Shown here: positions 5,052 to 45,634 of the stretch, one piece after another
How the letters are laid out: the number at the start of each line of letters is the position of its first letter
Numbering within the stretch: the first letter of the stretch is position 1
NCBI GenBank assembly: GCA_026770705.1
Contig: JANJGN010000026.1
Coordinates: 27,156,001 to 27,220,000 of the forward strand
Direction: 5' to 3'
From: Isurus oxyrinchus
Taxonomy: Eukaryota
DNA length: 64,000 nucleotides
Made by a program: the position numbers and the translations under genes
Notes under the pieces: generated by a model
The model's input: only the letters and a program-made list of their open reading frames with translations
Told to the model about the DNA's origin: nothing
The model's database searches: none

Positions 5052-5060
5052 TCACTCGAT
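5052..5060 (-). CDS. IGHM: TM2 exon coding part, ATC GAG TGA (IE*)
   Basis: Strong acceptor TTTTATCTCCTTTTACAG 138 nt after TM1, then two codons and a stop, two substitutions from GTC AAG TGA (VK*). Confidence 0.75.
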   Translation of the reverse strand: ME

Positions 5061-5198: not shown

Positions 5199-5317
5199 TT
5201 TCACCAGAGTGACGGCAGTGCTGTAACACATGCTCAGGAAGAACAGGATGATGAATGTGGAAGCTGTTGTCAAGATGTTGCCATTATCATCGTCAGAGCC
5301 TTCAATCCAGATGCCAT
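5199..5317 (-). CDS. IGHM: TM1 exon (DGIWIEGSDDDNGNILTTASTFIILFFLSMCYSTAVTLVK)
   Basis: Acidic spacer plus mu-type transmembrane CART motif. Acceptor CACAG in phase 1, donor AAA|GTGAG. Confidence 0.88.
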
Positions 5318-8213: not shown

Positions 8214-8228
8214 TTTATTATTTTTATT
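8214..8228 (-). terminator. Secretory-form polyadenylation signals (two AATAAA)
   Basis: tttatt at 8214-8219 and 8223-8228, about 30-40 nt past the tailpiece stop. Confidence 0.8.
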
Positions 8229-8255: not shown

Positions 8256-8644
8256 TCAATGACATGAATTAATGGTGTCCATCAGTGCAAGGGAAATGTT
8301 CACAAAACTCGGTTTACCGCTGGATTTATCAACAGTTCTGTTGATGATCATCAGGGGGATCACTTCATGTCCCACCACACAGGAGTAAGGAGCGCCGCTG
8401 GCCCACTCCTCCACTGCAATGGTTAACAGGCTGTACATGAAGATGGAGCGATTACTGTTCACCATCACCTCGGTATTCTTGTAGTTCCTGGGATTCACCG
8501 GCTTGTCATTGACGGTCCACTTGACAAAGATCTCTCGGGGGTAGAAATCTTTAACTAAGCAGCTGAAGGAGACGAATCTCTGAATAGAGACATCTTCCAC
8601 CGAGGGCAGGAGGACAGACACGGATGGTTCCCACAGATTTTTCG
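8256..8644 (-). CDS. IGHM: Cmu CH4 exon plus secretory tailpiece [20 protein letters not shown]
   Basis: Acceptor TTTTCTGCAG, open to TGA at 8256-8258. Tailpiece has the NIS sequon and penultimate Cys. Internal donor G|GTAAA (exon end 8318) serves the membrane form. Confidence 0.96.
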
Positions 8645-9588: not shown

Positions 9589-9888
9589 CTGGTTCCTTGT
9601 GGATGGAACTTTTTAAAGGATCTTGATGGCTCACCACGCAGTAGAACTCAGCCCCACTCAGCCAGGCTTGTGTCGAGATGGTTACGTTGCTGACGACACT
9701 GTTGGGATCCTCTCCCGGTTGGACGGCAACCTCTGATTTCAAAGGCTTCGTTTCTTGGGTCCAGGACTCGAGGGTTCCATAAGGGGCATTAGAAGCGATG
9801 CAGTTTAAGGTCACTATCACCTCCAGTAAGACCTGTTCTATTGGCGGTGGAAGCAGAGTAATTGTGGGATCCCTGCACTGGGAATGAT
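9589..9888 (-). CDS. IGHM: Cmu CH3 exon ([14 protein letters not shown]...SSIHKEP)
   Basis: Acceptor TTTCATAG, donor G|GTGAG, 300 nt open phase 1-1, Cys/Trp intact. Confidence 0.93.
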
Positions 9889-10250
9889 CTATGAAACAGA
9901 AATGAAAATCAGCCAAAGTTCTACCTTTAGAATTAAGACAGCAGTATTCAACCTTCACTCCCTAAAGGAGAATAAATCATCTTTGGCATATCAACCTCTA
10001 ACTATTATCTTTAATCTGCCTTACACAATGGAAAATCAGTTTGATCTATGTAAATCGTTCTCATTATATGAGTCGTTCAGCCCCGGAAACATTCTAATGA
10101 ATCTGCATTGCCCCAGTCCCAAGGCAAATATAGCATTCCCAAGCCCTGGAATGCAGTGCAGAACGCCGTTTTCTAAATAGGTTGGATATCCTTGGCAATA
10201 CATAATCCAGAAGCTATTGCCAGTTACTGCAATCGGTTTGTATCTCTTAC

Positions 10251-10548
10251 CAGGTCTGTTGATGTTTCGACTTTGGGTGATCGACCTGACAGGCATAGGC
10301 CGCATCGGTGAACCATTCCCGAGCGGAGACTTTCAGCCGACTGGTCGCCGAGAAGTTCCCGTTCACTGCAAAGGCGAGAGACGTGACAATTCCTGAATCC
10401 ATGGGTTGTCCATTCTTCAGCCACTTCACGGTGATTGACTTTGGACGGAAATCAATGATTGAACAGACGGCGGTTGCAAATGTGTTGGTTGTGATTTCTT
10501 CCCTGGAACTCACGGTGAGGAGAACAGTTGGAAGGAAGTCCGGAAGAC
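10251..10548 (-). pseudogene. IGHM: Cmu CH2 exon with 3' frameshift
   Basis: Acceptor TTCTTTAAG, donor G|GTAAG, but 298 nt (not a multiple of 3). The main frame ends [15 protein letters not shown], while the expected tail [10 protein letters not shown] is in another frame (ORF 10036..10305). Confidence 0.9.
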
Positions 10549-10761: not shown

Positions 10762-11058
10762 ATTGCATTCCAACGCTCTTGTCTGAGCCGCTGTGTCGAA
10801 TCTCACAGTTGATTTTGCTGCACTCTCCCTCTGACTCGGTGGTTAACTGGCTGCTCAGGGTGTAGGTTCCCTTCTGGTTTCTCACTGACGGGTAAGTCTT
10901 AAATCCAGTGGTGATCGGCTGTCTATCTTTCTTCCAGGTCAGGTTGGTGATTTCTGGGGAGTAGTCTGTCGCCAAACAGCCGTAGGTGACGGAGCCGTCG
11001 GTGTTGTGTTGCTGACAGGGGGAGATCAGGCTGTAGAGAGTGGGCGAAGACGGTGTCG
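10762..11058 (-). CDS. IGHM: Cmu CH1 exon ([17 protein letters not shown]...KSVGMQ)
   Basis: Acceptor TTTCCCAG, donor T|GTAAG, 297 nt phase 1-1. Ig C1 Cys/Trp present plus the early Cys (SPC) at the usual light-chain-linking position. Confidence 0.95.
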
Positions 11059-18624: not shown

Positions 18625-18672
18625 TTCACAAGAAAATAAAAATGTCAAGGGAAACTACATATATATATACTG

Positions 18673-20256
18673 AACAAAAACAGAATTACCTGGAAAAACT
18701 CAGCAGGTCTGGCAGCATCGGCAGAGAAGAAAAGAGTTGACGTTTCGAGTCCTCATGACCCTTCGACAGAACTTGATTTCGAGTCCAAGAAAGAGTTGAA
18801 ATATAAGCTGGTTTAAGGTGTGTGTGTGGGGGGGGGGCGGAGAGATAGAAATAGAGAGAGGTGCTTGTTAGACAAACAAGCAGTGATAGAAGCAGATCAT
18901 CAAAAGATGTCAGCGACAATGGTACAAAATAACACATAGGTGTTGAAGTTAAAGTTGGTGATATTATCTAAACGAATGTGCTAATTAAGAATGGATGGTA
19001 GGGCACTCAAGGTACAGCTCTAGTGGGGGTGGAGGGAGCATAAAAGATTTTAAAATATTTAAAAATAATGGAATAGGTGGGAAAAGAAAAATCTATATAA
19101 TTTATTGGGAAAAAAAAGGGGGGAAACAGAAAGGGGGTGGGGATGGGGGAGGGAGCTCACGACCTAAAGTTGTTGAATTCAATATTCAGTCCGGAAGTCT
19201 GTAAGGTGCCTAGTCGGAAGATGAGGTGTTGTTCCTCCAGTTTGCGTTGGGCTTCACTGGAACAATGCAGTAAGCCAAGGACAGACATGTGGGCAAGAGA
19301 GCAGGGTGGAGTGTTAAAATGGCAAGCGACAGGGAGGTTTGGGTCATTCTTGCGGACAGACCGCAGGTGTTCTGAAAAGCGGTCACCCAGTTTATGTTTG
19401 GTCTCTCCAATGTAGAGGAGACCACATTGGGAGCAACGAATGCAGTAGACTAAGTTGGGGGAAATGCAAGTGAAATGCTGCTTCACTTGAAAGGAGTGTT
19501 TGGGCCCTTGGACGGTGAGGAGAGAGGAAGTGAAGGGGCAGGTGTTACATCTTTTGCATGGGCATGGGGTGGTGCCATAGGAGGGGGTTGAGGAGTAGGG
19601 GGTGATGGAGGAGTGGACCAGGGTGTCCCGGAGGGAGCGATCCCTACGGAATGCCGATAAGGGGGGTGAAGGGAAGATGTGTTTGGTGGTGGCATCATGC
19701 TGGAGTTGGCGGAAATGGCGGAGGATGATCCTTTGAATGCGGAGGCTGGTGGGGTGATAAGTGAGGACAAGGGGGACCCTATCATGTTTCTGGGAGGGAG
19801 GAGAAGGCGTGAGGGCGGATGCGCGGGAGATGGGCCGGACACGGCTGAGGGCCCTGTCAACGACCGTGGGTGGAAAACCTCGGTTAAGGAAGAAGGAGGA
19901 CATGTCAGAGGAACCATTTTTGAAGGTAGCATCATCGGAACAGATGCGACGAAGGCGAAGGAACTGGGAGAATGGGATGGAGTCCTTACAGGAAGCGGGG
20001 TGTGAGGAGCTGTAGTCTAGGTAGCTGTGGGAGTCGGTGGGTTTGTAATGGATATTGGTGGACAGTCTATCACCAGAGATTGAGACAGAGAGGTCAAGGA
20101 AGGGAAGGGAAGTGTCAGAGATGGACCACGTGAAAATGATGGAGGGGTGGAGATTGAAAGCAAAATTAATAATTTTTTCCAAGTCCCGACGAGAGCATGA
20201 AGCGGCACCGAAGTAATCATCGATGTACCGGAGAAAAAGTTGTGGAAGGGGGCCGG
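18673..20256 (-). mobile_element. Young 5'-truncated Penelope-like retroelement (RT C-terminus + GIY-YIG endonuclease), 8-bp TSD ATATACTG
   Basis: Uninterrupted ORF with LRYIDD and NLVYCIRCSQCGLLYIGET. ATATACTG at 18665-18672 and 20257-20264. Confidence 0.92.
18735..18773 (-). ncRNA. Minimal hammerhead ribozyme motif with variant core (young PLE)
   Basis: AGTT-CTGTCGA-A-GGGTC ATGAG GACTC-GAAA-CGTC-AACT: stem I AGTT/AACT, 5-bp stem II, palindromic ACGT in place of stem III. Confidence 0.65.
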
Positions 20257-20957
20257 ATATACTGTATGAGAACAGGCTGTTAATTTGTTGGAAAGTGGTC
20301 TCTGATTTGTAGAGGCATTGACATGGAGAATGCACCAGTTGATAATGACTGACAGTTAACTGCCAATCACTGTTTGAAATTTAAATCAGACATTGTACAC
20401 GGAATGAACCAGTAAATGCCTGTCACTTATTTTGTTTAGCTGAAACGGGAGAAATGTGTGTAAAACAATGCAGAGAATACCTGCAAAGAACAGGGCCCTG
20501 TGTATTAACATATGCAGCTCCCAGTACATATAAATGCACCACACTCCGAGCCCGATTTGCCTTAAAATTCATTCATGGGATGTGGGCATCGCTGGCCAGG
20601 CCACCATTTATCACCCATTCCTAGTTCAGAGGGCATTTAAGAACCTACAACATTGCTGTGGTCTGGAGTCACACACTGGCCAGAAAACGGCAAATTTCCT
20701 TCCCTGAAGGATATTAGTGAACCAGATGGGTTTTTATAACAATCGACAATGACCATTATTTCATGCTCATTATCAGCCGTTTAAATTCCATGTTGTTATT
20801 GAATTTAAATTCCTTCTCCTGCTGTGGCTCTGGGTCCCAAGAACAATACCTTGCGCCTCTGGATTACTAGTTCAGCGACAGTACCACGACAGCATCGTCT
20901 CCCCAAACTTAAATTGGCTATCAGTATTAATACACTGAGCATTATTCTTCAGATGTT

Positions 20958-21152
20958 AAAAACAAAAAAATTGCGGATGCTGGAAATCCAAAACAAAAAC
21001 AGAATTACCTGGAAAAACTCAGCAGGTCTGGCAGCTTCGGCGGAGAAGAAAAGAGTTGACGTTTCGAGTCCTCGAGGACTCGAAACGTCAACTCTTTTCT
21101 TCTCCGCCGATGCTGCCAGACCTGCTGAGTTTTTCCAGGTAATTCTGTTTTT
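20958..21152. mobile_element. Palindromic PLE terminal insert (79-bp arms at 20995-21152, no spacer), 14-16 bp TSD
   Basis: Arms nearly identical to 18676-18754 with one inter-arm mismatch. (TT)ATTCTTCAGATGTT on both sides. Confidence 0.9.
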
Positions 21153-22382
21153 ATTCTTCAGATGTTGTCCAGTCGCGGAATCATATCTAATGTTGAACAT
21201 GGCGTTTTGAGTTTTGCAAGCATGGGCTCGTTGGGTACGAACCATACCTTGTCCATTGTAGGAAGTACATGCTATTTGATACAATCCGCCAATCTCTGGA
21301 CCGCACGGCCTACATTTTTTAGCATCACGCTGGCACTGAAATTCATATACAATATTACTCAATTTTATGATCATTTTGGATTGACGGCAGCATCCTGTTA
21401 GTGGCGAATACTACTCTGTTGCTACTGCAGAGTAGCAGTGTGAAACAGCGAGGTTCACCTCTTGCTCAAGCTTGTGAAATACTTTGCCCTTTCAGAGTAA
21501 TCGAGATAGACTGGGCACTTTTCAGGGCCGAAAATGATGGCATTGGGCACGTTCATGAGTTTGCATGATATACAGCGTGAAATGACCTGACCAAGGTAGC
21601 CATTATCCCGCAGGATGTTTTTGATACGCCCGATTTCAGCATTAGGCTTGCACAGTGAGCAAAAGTCTCGGGCCCGATTTACGAGTTTTCCGATAAGGCC
21701 ATCGTGTGCATTGAACAGCGAAGGAAGGCTTGTGGTAGACCATGGTAGAGAACGTCTTAAAAGTTTTCTCAACCAGTACGTCAAGGAAAGGGAGTTCATT
21801 TTACTCCTCCATTTCAAAGTTGAATTTGAGAGCAGAATGGATCTCATTAAGGTGAGTAAGGAAATTATTAAAGTTTTTTGCGCTACCTATGAGCGTTCAT
21901 AAGCATTACATGAATATTTGCCAATTTAAGTACCACAAAATCAGATTAAAATATTGTTTTATCGCATTTAACCGCTAAAGATTTTGTCCTATAATCATAT
22001 TTAAAATATATTTCAATGCTTAATATTTACGGTGGATGGTAAAACTTGACGCCACCAGATGACACTGAGATTAAAATATGTAGAAATGTCAAACATTTAA
22101 CAGATGTTTGGTATTTGACATCACCCAGCCACACAGTATCCTCAGCACATAAACACCAAATCACATCAAACAGGGATTGAACCCCTGAGCATTTTCTTTT
22201 GTCGAGAAACAGATGAACTTTTTAAACCCTTTCCATCAGAATCACATGAAACATTCCAAAAGCAAATCTAATATAGAACCCAACAAGCCCACCTTTCAGT
22301 CAACAAGTTAAATGTCAAAATAAACAAAAATATAAACAAAGAACCACATGAAACAATTGATAAACAAATACATGGTTCTGAC

Positions 22383-22748
22383 CTGCAGTCACGGTCACCA
22401 TGGTGCCTTGTCCCCAGTATTCGCCACCCCAGTATGCATTAGGCTGCCATGAACAGTAATAGATGGCGGTGTCTTCGGTCTTCAGGTTCATCATGTCCAA
22501 AGAGAGGATATTGTCTGATAAGTCTTTGGACGCAGTAAATCGATTCTGAATCCCTGGGGCATAGTAATTGTTGTATGAAGTATAGTAGTAAAGAAGCCAC
22601 CCCAGCCTCTGTCCAGGAACATGTCGGACCCAGTGCATGCTGCAGCTGCCAAGATTGAACCCGCTGATTTTACAGGTCAGTCTCAGGGAGCCTCCGGGAC
22701 GCCCGGTCTCTGCCTCAGGCTGAGTCAACACAACATGGGACTGGACAC
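22383..22748 (-). CDS. IGHV: Joined VDJ exon ([15 protein letters not shown]...[29 protein letters not shown])
   Basis: Acceptor TTTTACAG, 366 nt open frame, conserved C, W, YYC and WGQG motifs, donor G|GTCAG. V runs directly into J with no heptamer/nonamer in between. Confidence 0.96.
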
Positions 22749-22873
22749 CTGTAAAATATATGAAAAACCCGAGGATTAATCCTGGTGAAATGATTCCTGA
22801 CCTGTAACATTCCAGAGAGAGACTAACACTGAGACAGTAACAGTGAGAGGCTTGGACAATAAAAACCGCTCAC

Positions 22874-22919
22874 GGGATAAGAAAGTCAGCAACAAACTGA
22901 GAGAAATCGCCGGCCTCAT
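22874..22919 (-). CDS. IGHV: Leader exon MRPAISLSLLLTFLS(R)
   Basis: ATG at 22919, hydrophobic signal peptide, phase-1 donor C|GTGAG, 125-nt intron to the V exon. Confidence 0.93.
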
Positions 22920-23009
22920 CTTCTGGTCATTTGGGACAAATGGTCCTGGCCAGAACTCAGTGAACAAACCAACTCCCGGACTTTTGGATTCCGGTCCCAG
23001 TGAGCAGCA

Positions 23010-23095
23010 TTTAAATACCCGCAGAAGGGGGCGGGTTTCCAGGCGTCGCCTGTTGATTCCCTGGTGGAGGCGGTGACTGGATCCACGCCCCACCT
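23010..23095 (-). promoter_or_regulatory. VH promoter: TATA-like TATTTAAA and GC/GT boxes, no octamer
   Basis: TATTTAAA at 23010-23017 (~90 nt upstream of the ATG), GGGGGCGGG at 23027-23035, CCACGCCCC near 23083. No ATGCAAAT seen in the proximal 300 nt, as known for shark VH promoters. Confidence 0.65.
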
Positions 23096-35499: not shown

Positions 35500-36300
35500 T
35501 AATTTAAATACAAACATGATCTAGTGCAGAACTGAGGCAGTATCTACTGCAATACAGAGACAGGTCTAGATTAATATATACAGAGACATGTTAAGTATAA
35601 TATAAACAGAGACAGGGCCTTGCTTAATAGAAGCAAATACAGGGTCTAGGGTAATATAAACAAAAACAGGGTCCAATGTAATATAAAAAGAGACAGGATC
35701 TAGTGTATTACAAATAGACAGGGTCCAGTTTAATATAAACAGGGACAGGGTCTCGTGTAAGATAAACAGTGACCAGGTCTACTGTAATATAAACAGAGTC
35801 AGTGTCTAGTGTAGTATAAAGAGACAGCAACTAGTGCAATATAAACAGAAACATATCGAGTATAATATAGATACATGTCGAGTGTAATATAAACAGACAC
35901 ATATCAAGTTTAATATAAACAGGGGCAAGGCCTAGTGTAATACAAAGACCTAGTCTCGTGTCATATAAACAGAGAGAGAGGGTCTGGTGTAATATAAATC
36001 GGTACTGGGATTAATGTAATATAAACAGAAACGGGGTCTAGTGCAGTATAAACAGAAACATCTTGAGTGTAATGTAAGCAGGGACAGAGCCTCGTGTAAT
36101 ACAAACAGGGACAGAGTCTAGTGTAATGTACACAGGAACAGCGTCTACTGTAATATAAACAGAGACAGCGTCTTGTTCATTATAAACCGAGAAATGTCGA
36201 GTATAATATAAACAGACATGCCGAGCGTAATATAAACTGTGACAAGGTCTGGTCTGTGTAATATAAAAAAGGACAGGGTCACGGTCGAATGCAACATCGA
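35500..36300 (-). repeat. 27-bp satellite array (reverse orientation)
   Basis: tagtgtaatataaacagagacagggtc-type units. Confidence 0.88.
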
Positions 36301-36880: not shown

Positions 36881-39800
36881 ATTTCATTAGATCCATTTAG
36901 TTTGAAGTACATGAATCGGGCTGAGAGAATACATTAGCCATACGTGGTCTACATGTTGTGGAGTAAAGACAATGACCCACAGCGAAGAGACAAGGCACAG
37001 AACCAGAGAGGAAAAAATTACACAGAGAGAGAGAGAGAGAGACGATACAGGACATCTCTACAAACACATTTTCCGTGTCTTTATATTTCATGATAAGTGG
37101 GAATCTTTCTTAATTCTGAACATCGATATCGTCGTGGCATAATTCTCATATCATTGACATTTAAAATTGCCCAAAAAACAATTGTTACTGGAATCGGTTG
37201 ATACATTTGCATGTTTGAATCTATTTCTGTGCTGTGTTGGTGGGGAAATATTTGCTGTGTTTTTGTTTCTCCAGAATCTAATCCGGGACTTCTATTTCTG
37301 TGTTTATTTACATAAACGCCTCACTGATTTCAATGAAGTGTTCATGGCAGCAAAACGAGATAAACACCGACACTTATTGATTGGTTTCTACTCAAAACAA
37401 AGATTTATTTTGAGAATATTGACAGTTGGTACAAAATGAATAGAAAATTCTTCAACATTCATTGGAACAGATGTTATTTATTCAAAACAAATAGAAATTC
37501 ATTTAAATTAAGAATTTAATTCCAAAAGTTCCACTTTCACAATCAATGAAGAATCTTTGAACAGGCTAGGATTCCACTGAATGTCAATTTGATTGAAGAT
37601 TTAACCCATTTAAACTGGACAAGTTAAAACAGCAGCCAGAGAAGTGACCTACAATCATATTAATCTCCGAGTTTTCAACATATCACAATGAGCATTTTAA
37701 AATGTTAACATTGAGAAAGGCTTTGCATTTATACAACACTGCTCACGACCCCAGGAGGTCCTAAAACCCTTAAAGCTTGTGATGTAGCTTTGTTGAAGTT
37801 TAATCACTGCTGTAATGTTGGAAGTCCATCCGGTGATTTGTGCACAGCAAGTTTCCACGAATAGAGCTGTGAAAAATGATCAGATAATATGTGATTTTAG
37901 TTGATGAATGAATATTGGTCTAGAATAGAGGGCAGAACAGTCCTGCTCGAGAGAATTGTACCAAGGGAGATTTTGCATCTGTTATCGACCTGAAAGTTTG
38001 AGATCTGTTTCTCTCTCTACTGATGTCCACAGACCTGCTGAGTTTTTTTTTGTTTTGCTTTAGATTTCCAGAATCCACAGTATTTTGCAGCACTTTAATT
38101 CTTTCTTATGATATGGGCATGATTGATGAAGTAACTATTGCACTTTTCCATGTCTCATTTTATGATAGGCCAGATCATACATCAATAATCTCTTCACTAC
38201 CCTCTGTCTTAGTTTATATTAAAATAGTCCCTTTGTCAGTAATCACTGCACGAGACCCTGTCTCAGTTTATATTAATCTAGACCCTGTATTGGTAATCAC
38301 TGCACTCTGTCCTGTCTCAGTTTCTATTAACCTGGACCTTGTATCAGTAATTATTGCACTATACACTGAATCAGTTTATATCAATCTAAACCCTACGTCA
38401 GTAATCTGTGCACGGGATCCTGTCTCAGCTCATATTAATCTAGACACTGTATCAGTAATCAGTGCACTGGACCCTTTCTCATTTAAAATTAACATAGTCC
38501 CTTTGACAGTAATCACACACTGGACCTTGACTCGGTTTATAATAATCGATACCTTGTATCAGTAATCACTGCACTATGCCATGTATCAGTTTATATTAAT
38601 CTAGACCCTGTATCCTTAATCACTACATTAGACACTTGCTCAGTTTGCATTCGTCTATATCCTGTATCAGTAATCACTGCACTAGACCCCATCACAGTTT
38701 GTATTAGTCTTGATCCTGCATCAGTAATCACTGCACTAGACTCTGCCTTAGATTATATTAATCTAGTCTCTGTATCATTACTTACTGCCCTGGACATGGT
38801 CTCAGTTTATTTTGATCTAGATATTGTATCAGTGATCAGTGCACTATAAACTTTCTCAGTTTATATTGATTTAGAGTCTGTATCAGTAATCTCTGCACTG
38901 GACCATGTTTCAGTTTATATTAAGCTAGTCTCTGTATCAGCAATAAAAGCAACATACCTTGCCCCAGTTTATTATAATCCAGACCTTGTTTCAATAACCA
39001 TTGCACCAGAGCCCGTCTCAGTTCATATTAATCTAATCCCTGTATCAGCATTCACTGCACGATGCCTTTCCCGAGTTCCTATTAATTTAAATCCTGCATC
39101 AGTAATTACTGCACTAGACCCTGTACATGTTATATTAAGCTATACCTGTATCAGTAATCACTGCACTATGCCCTGCCTCAGTTTATATTAATCTAGACCG
39201 TGTGTAAGGAATCACTGCACTAGGTCATGCCTCAGTTCATATTAACCTATGCCATGCATCAGTAATAACTGCATTGGACACTCTCTCAGTTTATATTGAT
39301 CTGAACCCTGTATCAGTGATCACTGCTCTGGACTTGTTCTCATTTTATATTGATCCAGACTCTGTATTAGTAATCTCTGCAGTAGAGCCGGTCTCAGTTT
39401 ATATTAATAAAGAGACTGCATTAGTGATCACTGCACTTGGCCCTGTCTCAGTTTCTATTAATCTGGGCCCTCTATCGATAATCACTGAATCATGCTCTAC
39501 CTCAGTGTTTATCAATCTTGGCCCTGTATAAGGATCAGTGAACTAGACCCTGTCTCAATTAATATTGATCTAGACCCAGTATCTGTTATCTCTGCATGCA
39601 AGCCTGCCTCACTTTATATTTGCCTAGTCCCTGTATCATTAATCATGGCACAAGAACCTGTCTCAGTTTATATCACCCTAGACCCTGTTACAGTAATCAC
39701 TGCATTTGGCCATGTCTTAGCTTCTATCAATCTCGGCCCTGTATCAGTAATCACAGCATTGGACACTGTATTAGTTTGTATTAATCTGGACCATGTATCA

Positions 39801-42800
39801 GTAATCACTTCACTAGCCTGAGTCCCTGTTTATATTTACCTGGGCCCTGATCAGTAACCACTGCACCATGGCCTGTCTTACTTTATATTAGTCTAGTCCC
39901 TGTGTCACTAATTACAGCACTAGAACCTGTCTCAGTTTATATTAACCGAGAGCCTGTATCAGTATTCACTGAACTATGTCCTGCCTCAGTTTATATCAAC
40001 CCAGACCCTGTAACAGTAATCACTGCACTGGACACTGTCTCAGTTTCTATTAGCCCAGATCATGTATCAGTAGCCACTGCAATAGACACTGTCTCAGTTT
40101 ACATTGATCTAGACCCTATATCGGTAATCACTGCAATGGACATTGTCTCAGTTTATATTGATCTAGACCCTGTATCAGTAATCACTGCACTTGGCCCTGT
40201 ATCAGTTTCTATTAATCTAGACACTGTATCAGTAATCAGTTAAAGTTGATCCAGACCCTGTATCAATTATCTCTGCACTAAAGCCTGTCTCAGTTTATAT
40301 TAATTTGGTCCCTGTATCACTAATTACTGAGCAAGAACCTATCTCAGTCTATATTGATCTAGACCCTATATCAGTAATCACTGCACTAGCCCATTTCCTA
40401 GTTTATATTTACCTGGGCCCTGTAGCAGTTTCTATTAATCTAGATTCTGTATCAGCAATCATTGCATTAGCCCATGTCCTAGGTTATATTTATCTACCTG
40501 CCTAAGTTTACATATTTGTAGACCCAGTATCAATAATCACTGCACTACACCCTGTCTCACTTTGTATTGATCTAGCCCTGTATCAGTCATCACTGCACTG
40601 GACAATGTTTCAGTTTATATTAATCTAGGCCCTGTGTCTGTAATCACTGCACTAAGCCCTTTCTCAGTTTAAATTAATCTGGAGCCTGTACCAGTAATCA
40701 CTGCACTAGGCTCTGCCTCAGCTGATATCAATCTAGACCCTCTATCAGTCATTACTACAGCTGGCCCCGTCTCAGTTCATATTAATCTAGACCCTTTCTC
40801 GGTAATCATTGTGCTAGATACTGTCTCAGTTTATACTAGTCCAGACCCGCTATCAGTAATCAATGCACTAGACCATCTCTCAGTTTATATTAATCTAGAG
40901 CCTGTATTGGCAAACCATGCTCTATGCTCTTTCTCAGTTTATATCAATCTAGGCCCTATATTAGTAATCATTGCACTTGGCTCTCTCTTCGTTTATGTTA
41001 ATCTAGACTTTGTATTAGTAATCATTGCATTAGACTGTGTCTCAGTTTATATAAATGTAGACCCTGTATCAGTAATCAATGCACTAGGTCCTGTCTCAAT
41101 TTATATTAATTTAGATCCTGTATCACTAATCACTGTTCTAGGCTCTGTCTCAGTTCTTATTAATCTAGAACTGTATGAGTAATCTCCGCAATCTGCCCTC
41201 CCTCAGTTTTTATAAATGTAGATCCTATATCAGTAACCCCTGCTCAGGCCACTGTCTTACTTCATATCAATCTAGACCCTGTATCAGTAACCACTAAACT
41301 AGACTCTGTCTCAGTTCATATTAACCTATGCCATGTATCAGTTATAACTGCACTGGACACTGTCTCGCTTTATATTGATCCAGACTCTGTATTAATAATC
41401 ACTACAATAGAGCCTGTCTCAGTTTATATTAATGAAGAGACTGCATTAGTAATCACTGCACTAGGCCCTGCCTCGTTTTATGTCTCGCGACCCTGTATCA
41501 GTAATCACTGCACTTGGCCTTGTCTCAGTTTCTATTAATCTAGGCCCTCTATCTGTAATCACTGTATTATGCTCTACCTCAGCATGTATCAATATTGACC
41601 CTGTATAAGTATCAGTGAACTAAACCCTGTCGCAGTTAATATTGATCTATACCCTGTATCAATTATCTCTGCACTCGAGTCTTTCTCACTTTATAATAGT
41701 CTAATCCCTGTATCACTAATTACGGCACTCAAACCTGTCTAAGTTTACATTAACCTAGAACCTGTATCAGTATTCACTGCACTAGGCCCTGCCTCAGTTT
41801 ATATCAACCTAGACCCTGTTACAGAAATCAGTGCACATGGCCATGTCTCAGTTTCTAACAATCTAGAACCTGTATCAGTAATCATTGTATTGGACACTGT
41901 CTCAGTTTATATTGATCGAGACTATGTGTCAGTTATCACTGCAATAGACATTGTCTCAGTTTATACTGATTGAGACCCTGTGTTAGTAATCACTGCACTA
42001 GCCCCTGTCCCAGTTTATATTTATCTGTGCCCTGCGTCAGTAATTACTGCACTAGGCCGTGTCTCAGTTTACGTTAATATAGACACTGTATCAGTATTCA
42101 GTGCACTAGACCCTATCTCGGTTATTGTTGACCCAGGCTCTGTATCAGTTCTCTCTGCAGTAGAGCCTGTCTCAGTTTATATTAATCCAGTCCCTGTATC
42201 ACTAATTACTTCACTAGAACCTGTCTCCGTTTATATTGATCAAGACCATGTATCAGTAATCACTGCACTTGGCCCTGTCTCAATTTCTATTAATCTAGAT
42301 CCCGTATCAGCAATTACTACATTAGCCCATGCCCTAGTTTATATTTATCTGCCTGCCTAAGTTTATATATTCACAGACTCTGTATCAGTCATCACCGCAC
42401 AAGATACTACCTCAGTTTATATTGATCTAGCCCATGTATCAGTAATCACTGCACCATACCCTAAATCACTATATATTGATCCAGACCCTGTATCAGTAAT
42501 CACTGTAATGGACACTGTCACTGCACAATGCCCTGCCTCAGCTTTTATCAATCTAGATCCTGTATCATTAATCACTGCACTAGGCCCTGTCTCAGTTTAT
42601 ATTAATCTAGACCCTGTATCAGTCATCAGTGCACTTTGCCCTTCCTGAGTTTACATCAACTTCGCCCATGTATCAGTAATCAAAACAGTTGGCCCTGTCT
42701 CAGTTCATATTAATCCAGACCCTTTCTTGGTAATCATTGCACTAGACACTGTCTCAGTTTATATTAGTCCAGGCCTTGTATCAGTAATGGTAGTGCTAGA

Positions 42801-43103
42801 GAATGCCTCAGTTAATATTAGTCCAGATCCAGTATCAGTAATCAATGCACTAGACCCTCTCTCAGTTTTTATTAATCTAGAGCCTGTATCAATGTTCTAT
42901 GCTCTGTCTCAGTTTATATCAATCTAGGCCCTATTTTAGGAATCACTGCACTTGGCCCTCCTTTCGTTTATGTTAATCTAGACCCTGTATCAGTAATCAC
43001 TGCACTAGGCCCCCTCTCAATTTATATTAAAATAGACCCTGTGCCAGTCAACACTGCACTCAGCCCTGTATCAGTAATCACTGCACTAGACCCAGTCCTA
43101 GCT

Positions 43104-43400
43104 TAAACGAAAACAGAAATACCTGGAAAAACTCAGCAGGTCTGGCAGCTTTGGCAGAGAAGAGCAAAGTTGACGTTTTGAGTCCTCATGACCCTTCAAC
43201 AGAACTAAGTAGAAATAGGAAAGGGGTGAAATATAAGCTGGTTTAAGGCCGGGGGTTGGGTGGGGTGGGGGGGGTGGGTGTGGGGGGGGAGAAGTGGGGG
43301 ATGGGGGTGGAGTTGTTGGGACAAGTAAGCAATGATAGGAGGAGATAGCCAAAAGATGTCACAGACAAAAGAACAAAGAGGTGTCGAAAGTGGTGATATT
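43104..43400 (-). mobile_element. Short 3' fragment of the young PLE family with hammerhead-like motif (43168-43206, GAAA mutated to AAAA)
   Basis: Strong similarity to 18673-18965. Confidence 0.85.
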
Positions 43401-43729
43401 AATCCAGACCATTAATCAGCAATCATTACCCTAGATCCTATCTCAGTTCACATTGATATACACCCTGTATCATTAATCACTGCCCTATTACTTGTGATGG
43501 TGTATATTCATCTCGGCCCTGTATCGGTAATCACTGCACTATGCCCTGCCTCAGTTTATATCAATCTAGACCCTGTATGAGTAATCACTGCGCTAGCCCC
43601 TGTCTTCGTTTATATTAATCTAAACCCTGTGTCAATAAGCTCTGCACTAGGCCCAGTTTTAGTTTATGATAATCTAGGCCCTGCATCAGTAAGCACTGCA
43701 CCAGACATTTTCTTAATTTATACCAATCT

Positions 43730-45023
43730 GGATAAAAGCAAAATATTGCATATGCTGGAAGGCTGAAAGCAAAGCATAAAATGATGGGAAATCTCAGCAG
43801 GTCTGACAGCACCTGTGGATACAGAAGCAGAGTTAACATTTCAAGACCATATGGCTCTTCTTCAGTGTTAAAGAACAGTCGACACATCATGACCTTTATA
43901 CTGTTTAAGCGTGGTGGAGCCGGTGAGTCTGGATAGAAGGCAAGCAATAGGTGGGAGTAGGGTGACAATGACAAACATCATAGGCGAAAAGACAAAGAGA
44001 GTGTTAATGGTGATGGTAAGGCTAAAAAAGGTGCTAATAGTGGCATAAATGTAAGAAAGCAGAATGTGTTAATAGGAGAACCAGAATAAGCACACTGTGA
44101 AAGAACAACATGGAACAATTAACAGATAGCCCTTATGGGGATGTGGTTCATGGTGGTTGGGGTAAAATGGTATAAAAAGGAATAAAAAAAGGATAAGAAG
44201 GGGGATAAAATAATGAATAAATGAATAAGACTGTGAAGTGCCTAACTGGGAGATAAGGTGCTGTTGCTCCCATTTGTGTTGTACTTCACTGAAACATTGC
44301 AACAGGCCAAGGACAGGCATGTGGGCATGCGAGCAGGAAGTTGTGTTGAAAGGGCTAGCGACAGGGAGGCCTGGGTCATGCTTGCAGACAGGCTGAAGAT
44401 GTTCCACAAAGCAGTCACCCAGTCTGTGTTCGGTTTCCCCAGTCTACAGGAGGTGGCATTGGGAGCAGTGAATGCAGTAGAGCAAATTGGAAGAGGTGCA
44501 ATGAAGCGGTGCTTCACCTGAAAGGTGTGTTTGGGCCCTTGGACGGTGAGGAGGCAAGGTGTGGCATCTTCTTGATTGCATGGGAAGGTGCCATGGGAAG
44601 GGGCTAAGGTGTTGGGGGTGATGGAGAAGTGGACCATGGTGTCCTGGAGGGAATGGTGTCTACGGAATGCTGACAGTAGTGGAGGGGGTGGGGTGGTGAG
44701 GGAAAGATGTGTTTGGTGGTGGTATCATGCTGGAGTTAGCGGAAATGGCTGAGGATGTTCCTTTGACTCCAGAGGCTGGTGGGGTGAAATTTGCGGGCAA
44801 GGGAGGCCCTATCATCATTCCGGGAGGAAGGAGAAAATGTGAGCAGAGGCTCGGACACAATTGAAAGCCCTGTCAACCACAGTGCTGGGGAAACTTTAGT
44901 TAAGGAAGAAGGAAGACATGTCAGAAGTTCTGCTTTTGAAAGTGGCATAATCGGAACAGATGCGAAGGACGTAAAGCAACTGAGAGAATGGGATAGTGTT
45001 TTTCCAGATTTTTCTGCTTTTAT
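43730..45023 (-). mobile_element. Older frameshifted PLE copy with a short inverted terminal piece
   Basis: Colinear with 19210-19980 (RT C-terminus/GIY-YIG). Hammerhead-like CTGAAGA...GAAA at ~43830-43866. 45000-45023 inverts the 43732 end. Confidence 0.85.
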
Positions 45024-45634
45024 ATTAATCTAGACCCTGTATCAGTAATCACTGCATTAGACCCTATCTCAGTTTCTAATAATCAAGACCCTGCACCAGT
45101 AATCACTGCACTGGACCCTGTCTCAGCTGATAATAACCCAGGCCCTGCATTAGTTATAACTGCACTAAACCCTGCCTCAGTTTATGTCAATCAAGGCCCT
45201 GTCTTAGTAATTCCTAAACATCCCTGGTTCAATGTATTTTGTATCCTCATCTGCAGCTGTCAATGCTAGACTACACACTGCTTTAGTTATTGTTCTATTA
45301 GAGAACGTCATTGTTAATAGTACAATGGGCCCTATCTTATTTATTAACACAGTCATCCATATCTCTATTTTTGTTGCAATTGGTCCTTTCTCAATTATCA
45401 TTTAACCTGACCTTGCCACAGTTTGTATTATTAGATCTTGTGTCAGTTATTACCACACTATGCTATGCTTCTGTGGACACCCAGTTGACCTTTTTTCTGT
45501 TCGTACCATAGCACTCCCATGTCTGAATTTATAATTCACTACACCTTGTGTTTCGTTATTTTACACTGTACCATGCTTCAGTTATCACTGCCCTTGGCCT
45601 GATGACCTTGTCTCAGTTATGACAGTACTAGACC

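Follow-up and report, generated by a model that had tools for sequence, protein, structure and literature searches.

The stretch of Isurus oxyrinchus DNA analysed here (64,000 nucleotides, positions 27,156,001 to 27,220,000 of contig JANJGN010000026.1; hereafter the window) contains an immunoglobulin V region that runs without a break into a J segment, which raises the question of whether this joint is inherited through the germ line and, if so, whether the gene carrying it can still make an antibody. The gene is a germline-joined VDJ of a shark IgM heavy-chain cluster, the parts of which are listed in Table 1. It has the IgM layout, with four C-mu exons, a secretory tail with a penultimate cysteine and the TM1 and TM2 exons, the C2 exon being frameshifted, and its C domains are 71-85% (C1) and 78-79% (C4) identical to shark IgM proteins. 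The V cysteines and tryptophan, promoter, leader, tail and transmembrane exons are intact, and the 279 nt upstream of the gene show 90-92% identity to unjoined clusters. Just 5′ of the leader exon, loss of 1 nt has put out of frame an upstream ATG that is in frame in other clusters, and the window copy (locus L001 of genome G000) carries there a four-codon uORF ending on the main ATG. The J donor reads GTCAGA (A>C at +3), with the same change in the paralogue (L002) described below. Scans for recombination signal sequences (RSS) allowing up to 3 mismatches found none in L001 or L002 and found RSS in 28 of the 28 other V loci fetched; a looser scan within about 2 kb gave three weak matches, none of them at the joint, and the DNA that would separate the V, D and J segments is gone from the window. 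The preliminary description of an in-frame VDJ with a 12-residue CDR3 and no RSS was correct in its coordinates and reading. Its view of a DNA-level joint rather than a retrocopy likewise agrees with the leader intron and the 11.3-kb J-C intron, both kept, and with the gene having its own C exons.

Table 1. Features of the joined IgM gene, in window coordinates.
Feature	Position	Strand	Details
TATA-like box	23008..23019	-	IgH promoter
Leader exon	22874..22919	-	46 nt; ATG and GT donor intact
Joined VDJ exon	22383..22748	-	366 nt, phase 1/1, open, 121 aa
CDR3	22417..22452	-	12 aa, directly after YYC; followed by a WGQG-type J
CDR3, V-derived TCA	22452-22450	-	
CDR3, 14 nt without D match	22449-22436	-	
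CDR3, D2-like core	22435-22424	-	
CDR3, single C	22423	-	would fit a P nucleotide
CDR3, trimmed J	22422-22417	-	
C-mu1 exon	10762..11058	-	open; 3-nt in-frame loss common to the paralogue
C-mu2 exon	10251..10548	-	298 nt; 11-bp deletion at 10283/10282; splice sites intact
C-mu3 exon	9589..9888	-	open; 9-bp in-frame deletion near 9620
C-mu4 exon and secretory tail	8256..8644	-	ends SCH-stop
AATAAA signal	about 8223-8228		
TM1 exon	5199..5317	-	open
TM2 exon	5052..5060	-	IE-stop

The J-C intron of the window gene carries insertions at 18665-20264 and 20958-21150 that the paralogue does not have; these are a reverse-transcriptase-like ORF (20380-19160) and a short repeat, which makes a 164-bp palindrome at about 20992-21155. 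Upstream of the cluster are a 27-bp tandem array (35554-36216) and a 54-bp array of about 90 copies (38181-45201), and arrays are also found upstream of the paralogue.

The joint is an inherited germline join: as the preliminary description had proposed on the question of heritability, it recurs in a diverged paralogue, and it is also present in DNA contigs of two organisms, A and B. The paralogue lies 2.75 Mb away on the same contig, with 96% identity in the V search, about 6% divergence and an identical CDR3. The 59-nt stretch from YYC to WGQG is the same letter for letter in both copies, and the divergence in seven aligned blocks between TM and promoter is 4.4-7.3%. Differences on this scale are more than a single B cell or an assembly duplicate could produce. 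A genome-wide search for the YYC-gap-WGQG pattern returned only the window and the paralogue, and nothing in reversed controls; the corresponding joined pattern for the second V family gave no match in this genome. In the similarity searches, 40 of 107 candidates were scored for V and 40 of 113 for C2, with 30 fetched in each case. The 30 fetched V loci included two full-length joined copies, the other 28 ending in a V heptamer followed by RSS-flanked segments.

When the CDR3 was sought in other organisms, as had been suggested, contigs crossing the joint without gaps were present in three of the four runs compared on the exon (organisms A and B). The contig from X1 (organism A) covers 22150-22614 with 3 differences and that from X5 (organism B) covers 22150-22489 with 5, none of them in the CDR3, and X6 (organism B, from another study) covers 22390-22756 with 19 differences (not all itemised) and 0 gaps. 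Several alleles of the window copy are missing from X1, which thus represents a different haplotype, from the same or another species. In X15, a run labelled as RNA by guess, one contig covers the J and unspliced intron of the joined lineage and leaves the CDR3 uncovered; this contig was not counted in favour of expression, and no RNA run was listed as containing the sequence.

The order of segments and signals in unjoined clusters (V-23, 12-D1-22, 12-D2-12, 23-J) gives V and D2 a 23/12 RSS pair, and a direct V-to-D2 join is therefore allowed. RAG is likely to have cut at these signals in the germ line of an ancestor, after which the V end would have been trimmed by about 6 nt and the J end by about 8-10 nt, the 3′ end of D2 would have been retained together with one P-like base, and the 14 unassigned bases may be either N addition or an age-blurred remnant of D1. 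The V-derived TCA has a counterpart at the same position of one related V (L029), and of the J six bases are left ahead of the Trp codon. Genomic D2 segments are 13 nt long (e.g., ATATACTGGGTGG and ATAACTGGGATGG), and the 3′ end of one of them matches the joint exactly over 8 nt (7 of 300 shuffles were as good) or over 9 of 10 nt with one mismatch (1 of 300). The likeness to the second D segment claimed in the preliminary description therefore stands for a significant core, but the match is not exact and the 12-mer has no parent: no unjoined D2 in the genome consists of the exact 12-mer of the joint plus a heptamer, and a broader D2 pattern gave two genomic matches, both of another variant. 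The 14 nt to the left of this core match none of 14 D1 forms (best 4-5 nt), and the best D1 matches anywhere in the joint were equalled by 261 and 39 of 300 shuffles. Alignment of the junction to unjoined segments, the check proposed earlier, thus assigned the D2-like core and left 14 nt that fit no D1. The closest surviving unjoined relative has 87% identity in V (among 40 scored matches) and about 75% in the J-C intron, and with no close parent left, N addition and later mutation are inseparable at the joint. Germline light-chain joints are of RAG type, with little trace of TdT and scarce N regions, in the part of PMC2193156 available to us.

The only frame-breaking lesion of the window gene is in C-mu2, where 11 bp present in the paralogue and in the other aligned clusters are missing, as read from the assembly; C-mu3 has lost three residues. 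The preliminary description had overlooked these two deletions and the IgM identity of the C region. The frame is open through the second cysteine of C2, and normal splicing (L-V-C1-C2-C3) carries the frameshift into a TGA across the C2/C3 splice junction, while skipping of C2 leaves open secreted and open membrane chains. Cryptic donors restoring a complete C2 were not found: use of either of two in-frame GTs ahead of the lesion would remove part of the domain, and splicing from either of two beyond it leads into a stop. A normally spliced message would thus meet its stop at C2/C3 and either undergo nonsense-mediated decay (NMD) or yield only a V-C1-C2 stub. The X1 contigs are without cover at 10134-10304, where the C2 deletion lies, and an X6 piece ending at 10284 continues into promoter sequence through a doubled GATC, a join that looks like a proximity-ligation artefact. 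The paralogue has lesions of its own, namely a C2 acceptor changed from AG to AT, a +1 frameshift in C4 and an ATG changed to TTG, with the upstream in-frame ATG kept. Its promoter region (L033) has been replaced by unrelated sequence, starting about 110 nt 5′ of the leader.

The rate of coding change was compared with that of introns, the pseudogene cluster at 25.29 Mb being excluded from trees and rate counts. On the window branch, outside CpG sites, nonsynonymous changes amount to 29/1140 (2.5%) against 90/3401 (2.65%) in introns, and for the pair of joined copies pN/intron is 0.94, as compared with 0.17-0.63 when 7 other clusters are taken in 21 pairs, which are not independent; 29 or more changes would have a probability of 2e-5 if the ratio were 0.39 and of 0.02 if it were 0.63. 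As judged from these counts, the coding exons of the window gene are changing at the neutral rate since the duplication. The nonsynonymous changes are spread evenly over the exons (V 5, C1 7, C2 6, C3 8, C4 8), with no concentration in C2. Purifying selection on the window branch was considered and rejected: with CpG sites there are 34 nonsynonymous and 22 synonymous changes (pN/pS 0.46, p = 0.007), but 10 of the 22 synonymous ones fall at CpG dinucleotides, and the signal is largely gone without such sites (pN/pS 0.67, p = 0.26) and against introns. Between the paralogues, the 246 nt of CDR2-FR3-CDR3-J differ by two changes, both silent (p = 3e-5 for a block chosen post hoc), and this low divergence continues into the intron (9/365 sites), as under gene conversion. 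The ancestor of the pair differed from the cluster consensus by 0.7-3.4% in C1-C4; being so near the consensus, it was probably a working gene up to the duplication, or else had been homogenised by conversion.

Taken together, we regard the locus, with a probability of roughly 0.78, as an old, inherited joined IgM VDJ, likely made by RAG, duplicated and likely dead through its C-mu2 frameshift. Joining in the germ line would have been followed by duplication, and the resulting pair would now be decaying. The window copy is likely dead because of that frameshift, and the preliminary idea of a fixed specificity that could be expressed finds no support for this copy, given the stop at C2/C3, the lack of a rescuing donor and the neutral-rate coding change; for the gene to be expressed, C-mu2 would have to be skipped.

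The alternative that deserves most attention is a working gene resembling nurse-shark IgM1gj, a germline VDJ without C-mu2 that is expressed in neonates and serves as the precedent (available portions of PMC4279169 and PMC5192425). C-mu2 would here be skipped, and a three-C-domain chain with a fixed CDR3 would serve early life, making this a second, independent IgM1gj in which one germline VDJ, its CDR3 the same from species to species, became fixed in a shark lineage while C-mu2 is being lost via skipping, to give an IgG-like innate antibody. On this reading, relatives may still have fully intact orthologues. We consider this unlikely. The C2-skipped frame is open in secreted and membrane forms, and all three members of the clade of window gene, paralogue and a cluster on C152 have separate C2 lesions, as compared with 1 of 28 loci elsewhere, which is the C152 member itself, and C2 accounts for 4 of 9 lesions (p = 0.06). 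However, the C2 acceptor and donor of the window gene are intact, C1, C3 and C4 evolve at the neutral rate with C2 no more relaxed, C3 is short by three residues, the paralogue and the C152 copy carry further breaks outside C2, and the C2 donor is dead in an unjoined cluster too (30.11 Mb). The RNA-labelled run X15 (organism B) has a loose end at window position 9886 where C1 is joined to C3, but the C3 start there belongs to another IgM family, and no C1-to-C3 junction read derived from the window gene was found. A still poorer candidate is a transcribed gene secreting a truncated V-C1-C2 chain whose binding site is fixed, which we hold to be very improbable: the frame is open to the second cysteine of C2 and promoter and leader are intact, but the exons evolve neutrally and some 300 nt (approximately) separate the stop from the C3/C4 junction further on. 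With a stop so placed, NMD is expected.

Two further explanations concern the origin of the joint, and we give both next to no weight. Rearrangement in B or T cells sampled with blood DNA could be entertained, as many VDJ joints occur in shark lymphocytes and thymocytes (according to the accessible part of PMC2435157) and the 14 non-templated bases look like N regions of the somatic kind, which are scarce in the germline light-chain joints covered by the consulted part of PMC2193156. Such an origin, and equally an assembly chimera, are nevertheless contradicted by the presence of one and the same joint in two paralogues that lie 2.75 Mb from each other and have diverged by about 6%, and by its recurrence in contigs of other organisms and of other studies (X1, X5, X6), findings which together largely exclude the two possibilities that the preliminary description had named as fatal to its claim; moreover, no unjoined counterpart exceeds 87% in V among the 40 scored matches. 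Alternatively, a hypermutated B-cell gene could have entered the germ line, or the joined gene could have been a target of AID in germ cells. Private changes of the ancestor are in excess just after J (59/358, as compared with 48/2177 in C-region introns) and enriched at WRC/GYW motifs (14/23, p = 0.008). This excess is however flat with distance (6-17% across nine blocks that reach 3.5 kb along the ancestral intron), tandem changes in V (10/30) do not exceed those in two clusters with unjoined V (15/30 and 16/39), and introns are retained. The flat profile and the tandem control led us to reject a footprint of somatic hypermutation or AID; the flat excess fits an old, mosaic cluster ancestry.

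The inherited, probably dead VDJ of the window can be compared with germline-joined genes of other cartilaginous fish. Horn shark and skates carry germline-joined IgM clusters of the VDJ, VD-J and VD-DJ types (PMC5192425, PMC4279169 and PMC2193156, each as available in part). Like the window gene, they have a V-D-D-J-C layout, with fused VDJ that lack RSS and introns that are kept, and they too share their genome with clusters that are split or only partly joined; expression of the joined horn-shark H genes was not detected, as far as the accessible text of PMC2193156 states. Differently from these, the window gene has a new joint and CDR3 with 14 unassigned bases, and its joint is common to two paralogues and to related organisms. 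With IgM1gj (P0022) it shares a germline VDJ that is in frame, an IgM C region and an unusable C-mu2. However, the window gene keeps its C2 exon and splice sites, is known here from sequence alone, differs in CDR3 from IgM1gj (ARGSTGWALDY), has 62% identity to it in V and falls within the IgM clade of its own genome (95/98 support), apart from P0022, the placement of which is unsure owing to its long branch. Orthology with IgM1gj was rejected on the grounds of the different CDR3 and separate clade. The nurse-shark NS4 (kappa) light chains are germline-joined by RAG-like activity and include some pseudogenes (partial text of PMC2193156). The window joint resembles theirs in its apparently RAG-type features, trimming, possible P base, fully vanished RSS and stable inheritance, and differs in belonging to a heavy chain, in having no close unjoined parent and in containing more non-templated sequence. 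IgH clusters are also linked near TCR alpha/delta (PMC12227049, consulted in part). The window CDR3 was not among the 13 readable CDR3s from a word-limited protein database search (14 of 39 matches), and no publication on this joint was found in a literature search that left most subscription papers outside its coverage. A whale-shark protein from a genome contig (P0003) also runs from V into J, with CDR3 ARDWGGSLHY and a similar WGG core, and is possibly a different germline-joined gene.

Within the same genome, partial joins that appear germline-type by their form are common. D2 and J are fused in 4 of the 28 other V loci (L008, L010, L012 and L029, on C151, C26 and C210), with V and D1 still split and joints that are N-free with short overlaps. 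D1 is fused to D2 (V-DD-J) in L097-L098 (C26, 28.16 Mb) and L105-L107 (C26, 27.36 Mb), where the exons are apparently open. The cluster on C152 (L091-L093) has the form V-D1D2J, and its 24-nt junction resembles none of the D segments seen and is unrelated to the window joint; the cluster is sister to the joined pair in its C exons and is broken in V acceptor, C1, C2 and C4. A second large IgM family on C38 and C42 (L118-L123) has V segments with 48-50% identity to the window V, unjoined in both clusters read. At L043 a short V-J gap was observed.

Germline V(D)J joining has long been known in sharks, and as a pseudogene the window gene would be one more case. If skipping of C-mu2 did prove true, it would mean repeated evolution of an IgG-like early-life antibody of fixed specificity. 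The joint contains a larger number of unassigned bases than the light-chain joints described in the available part of PMC2193156, which bears on the question of TdT activity in germ cells. Since it is common to copies and to species, the joint is datable and can be traced from birth to decay.
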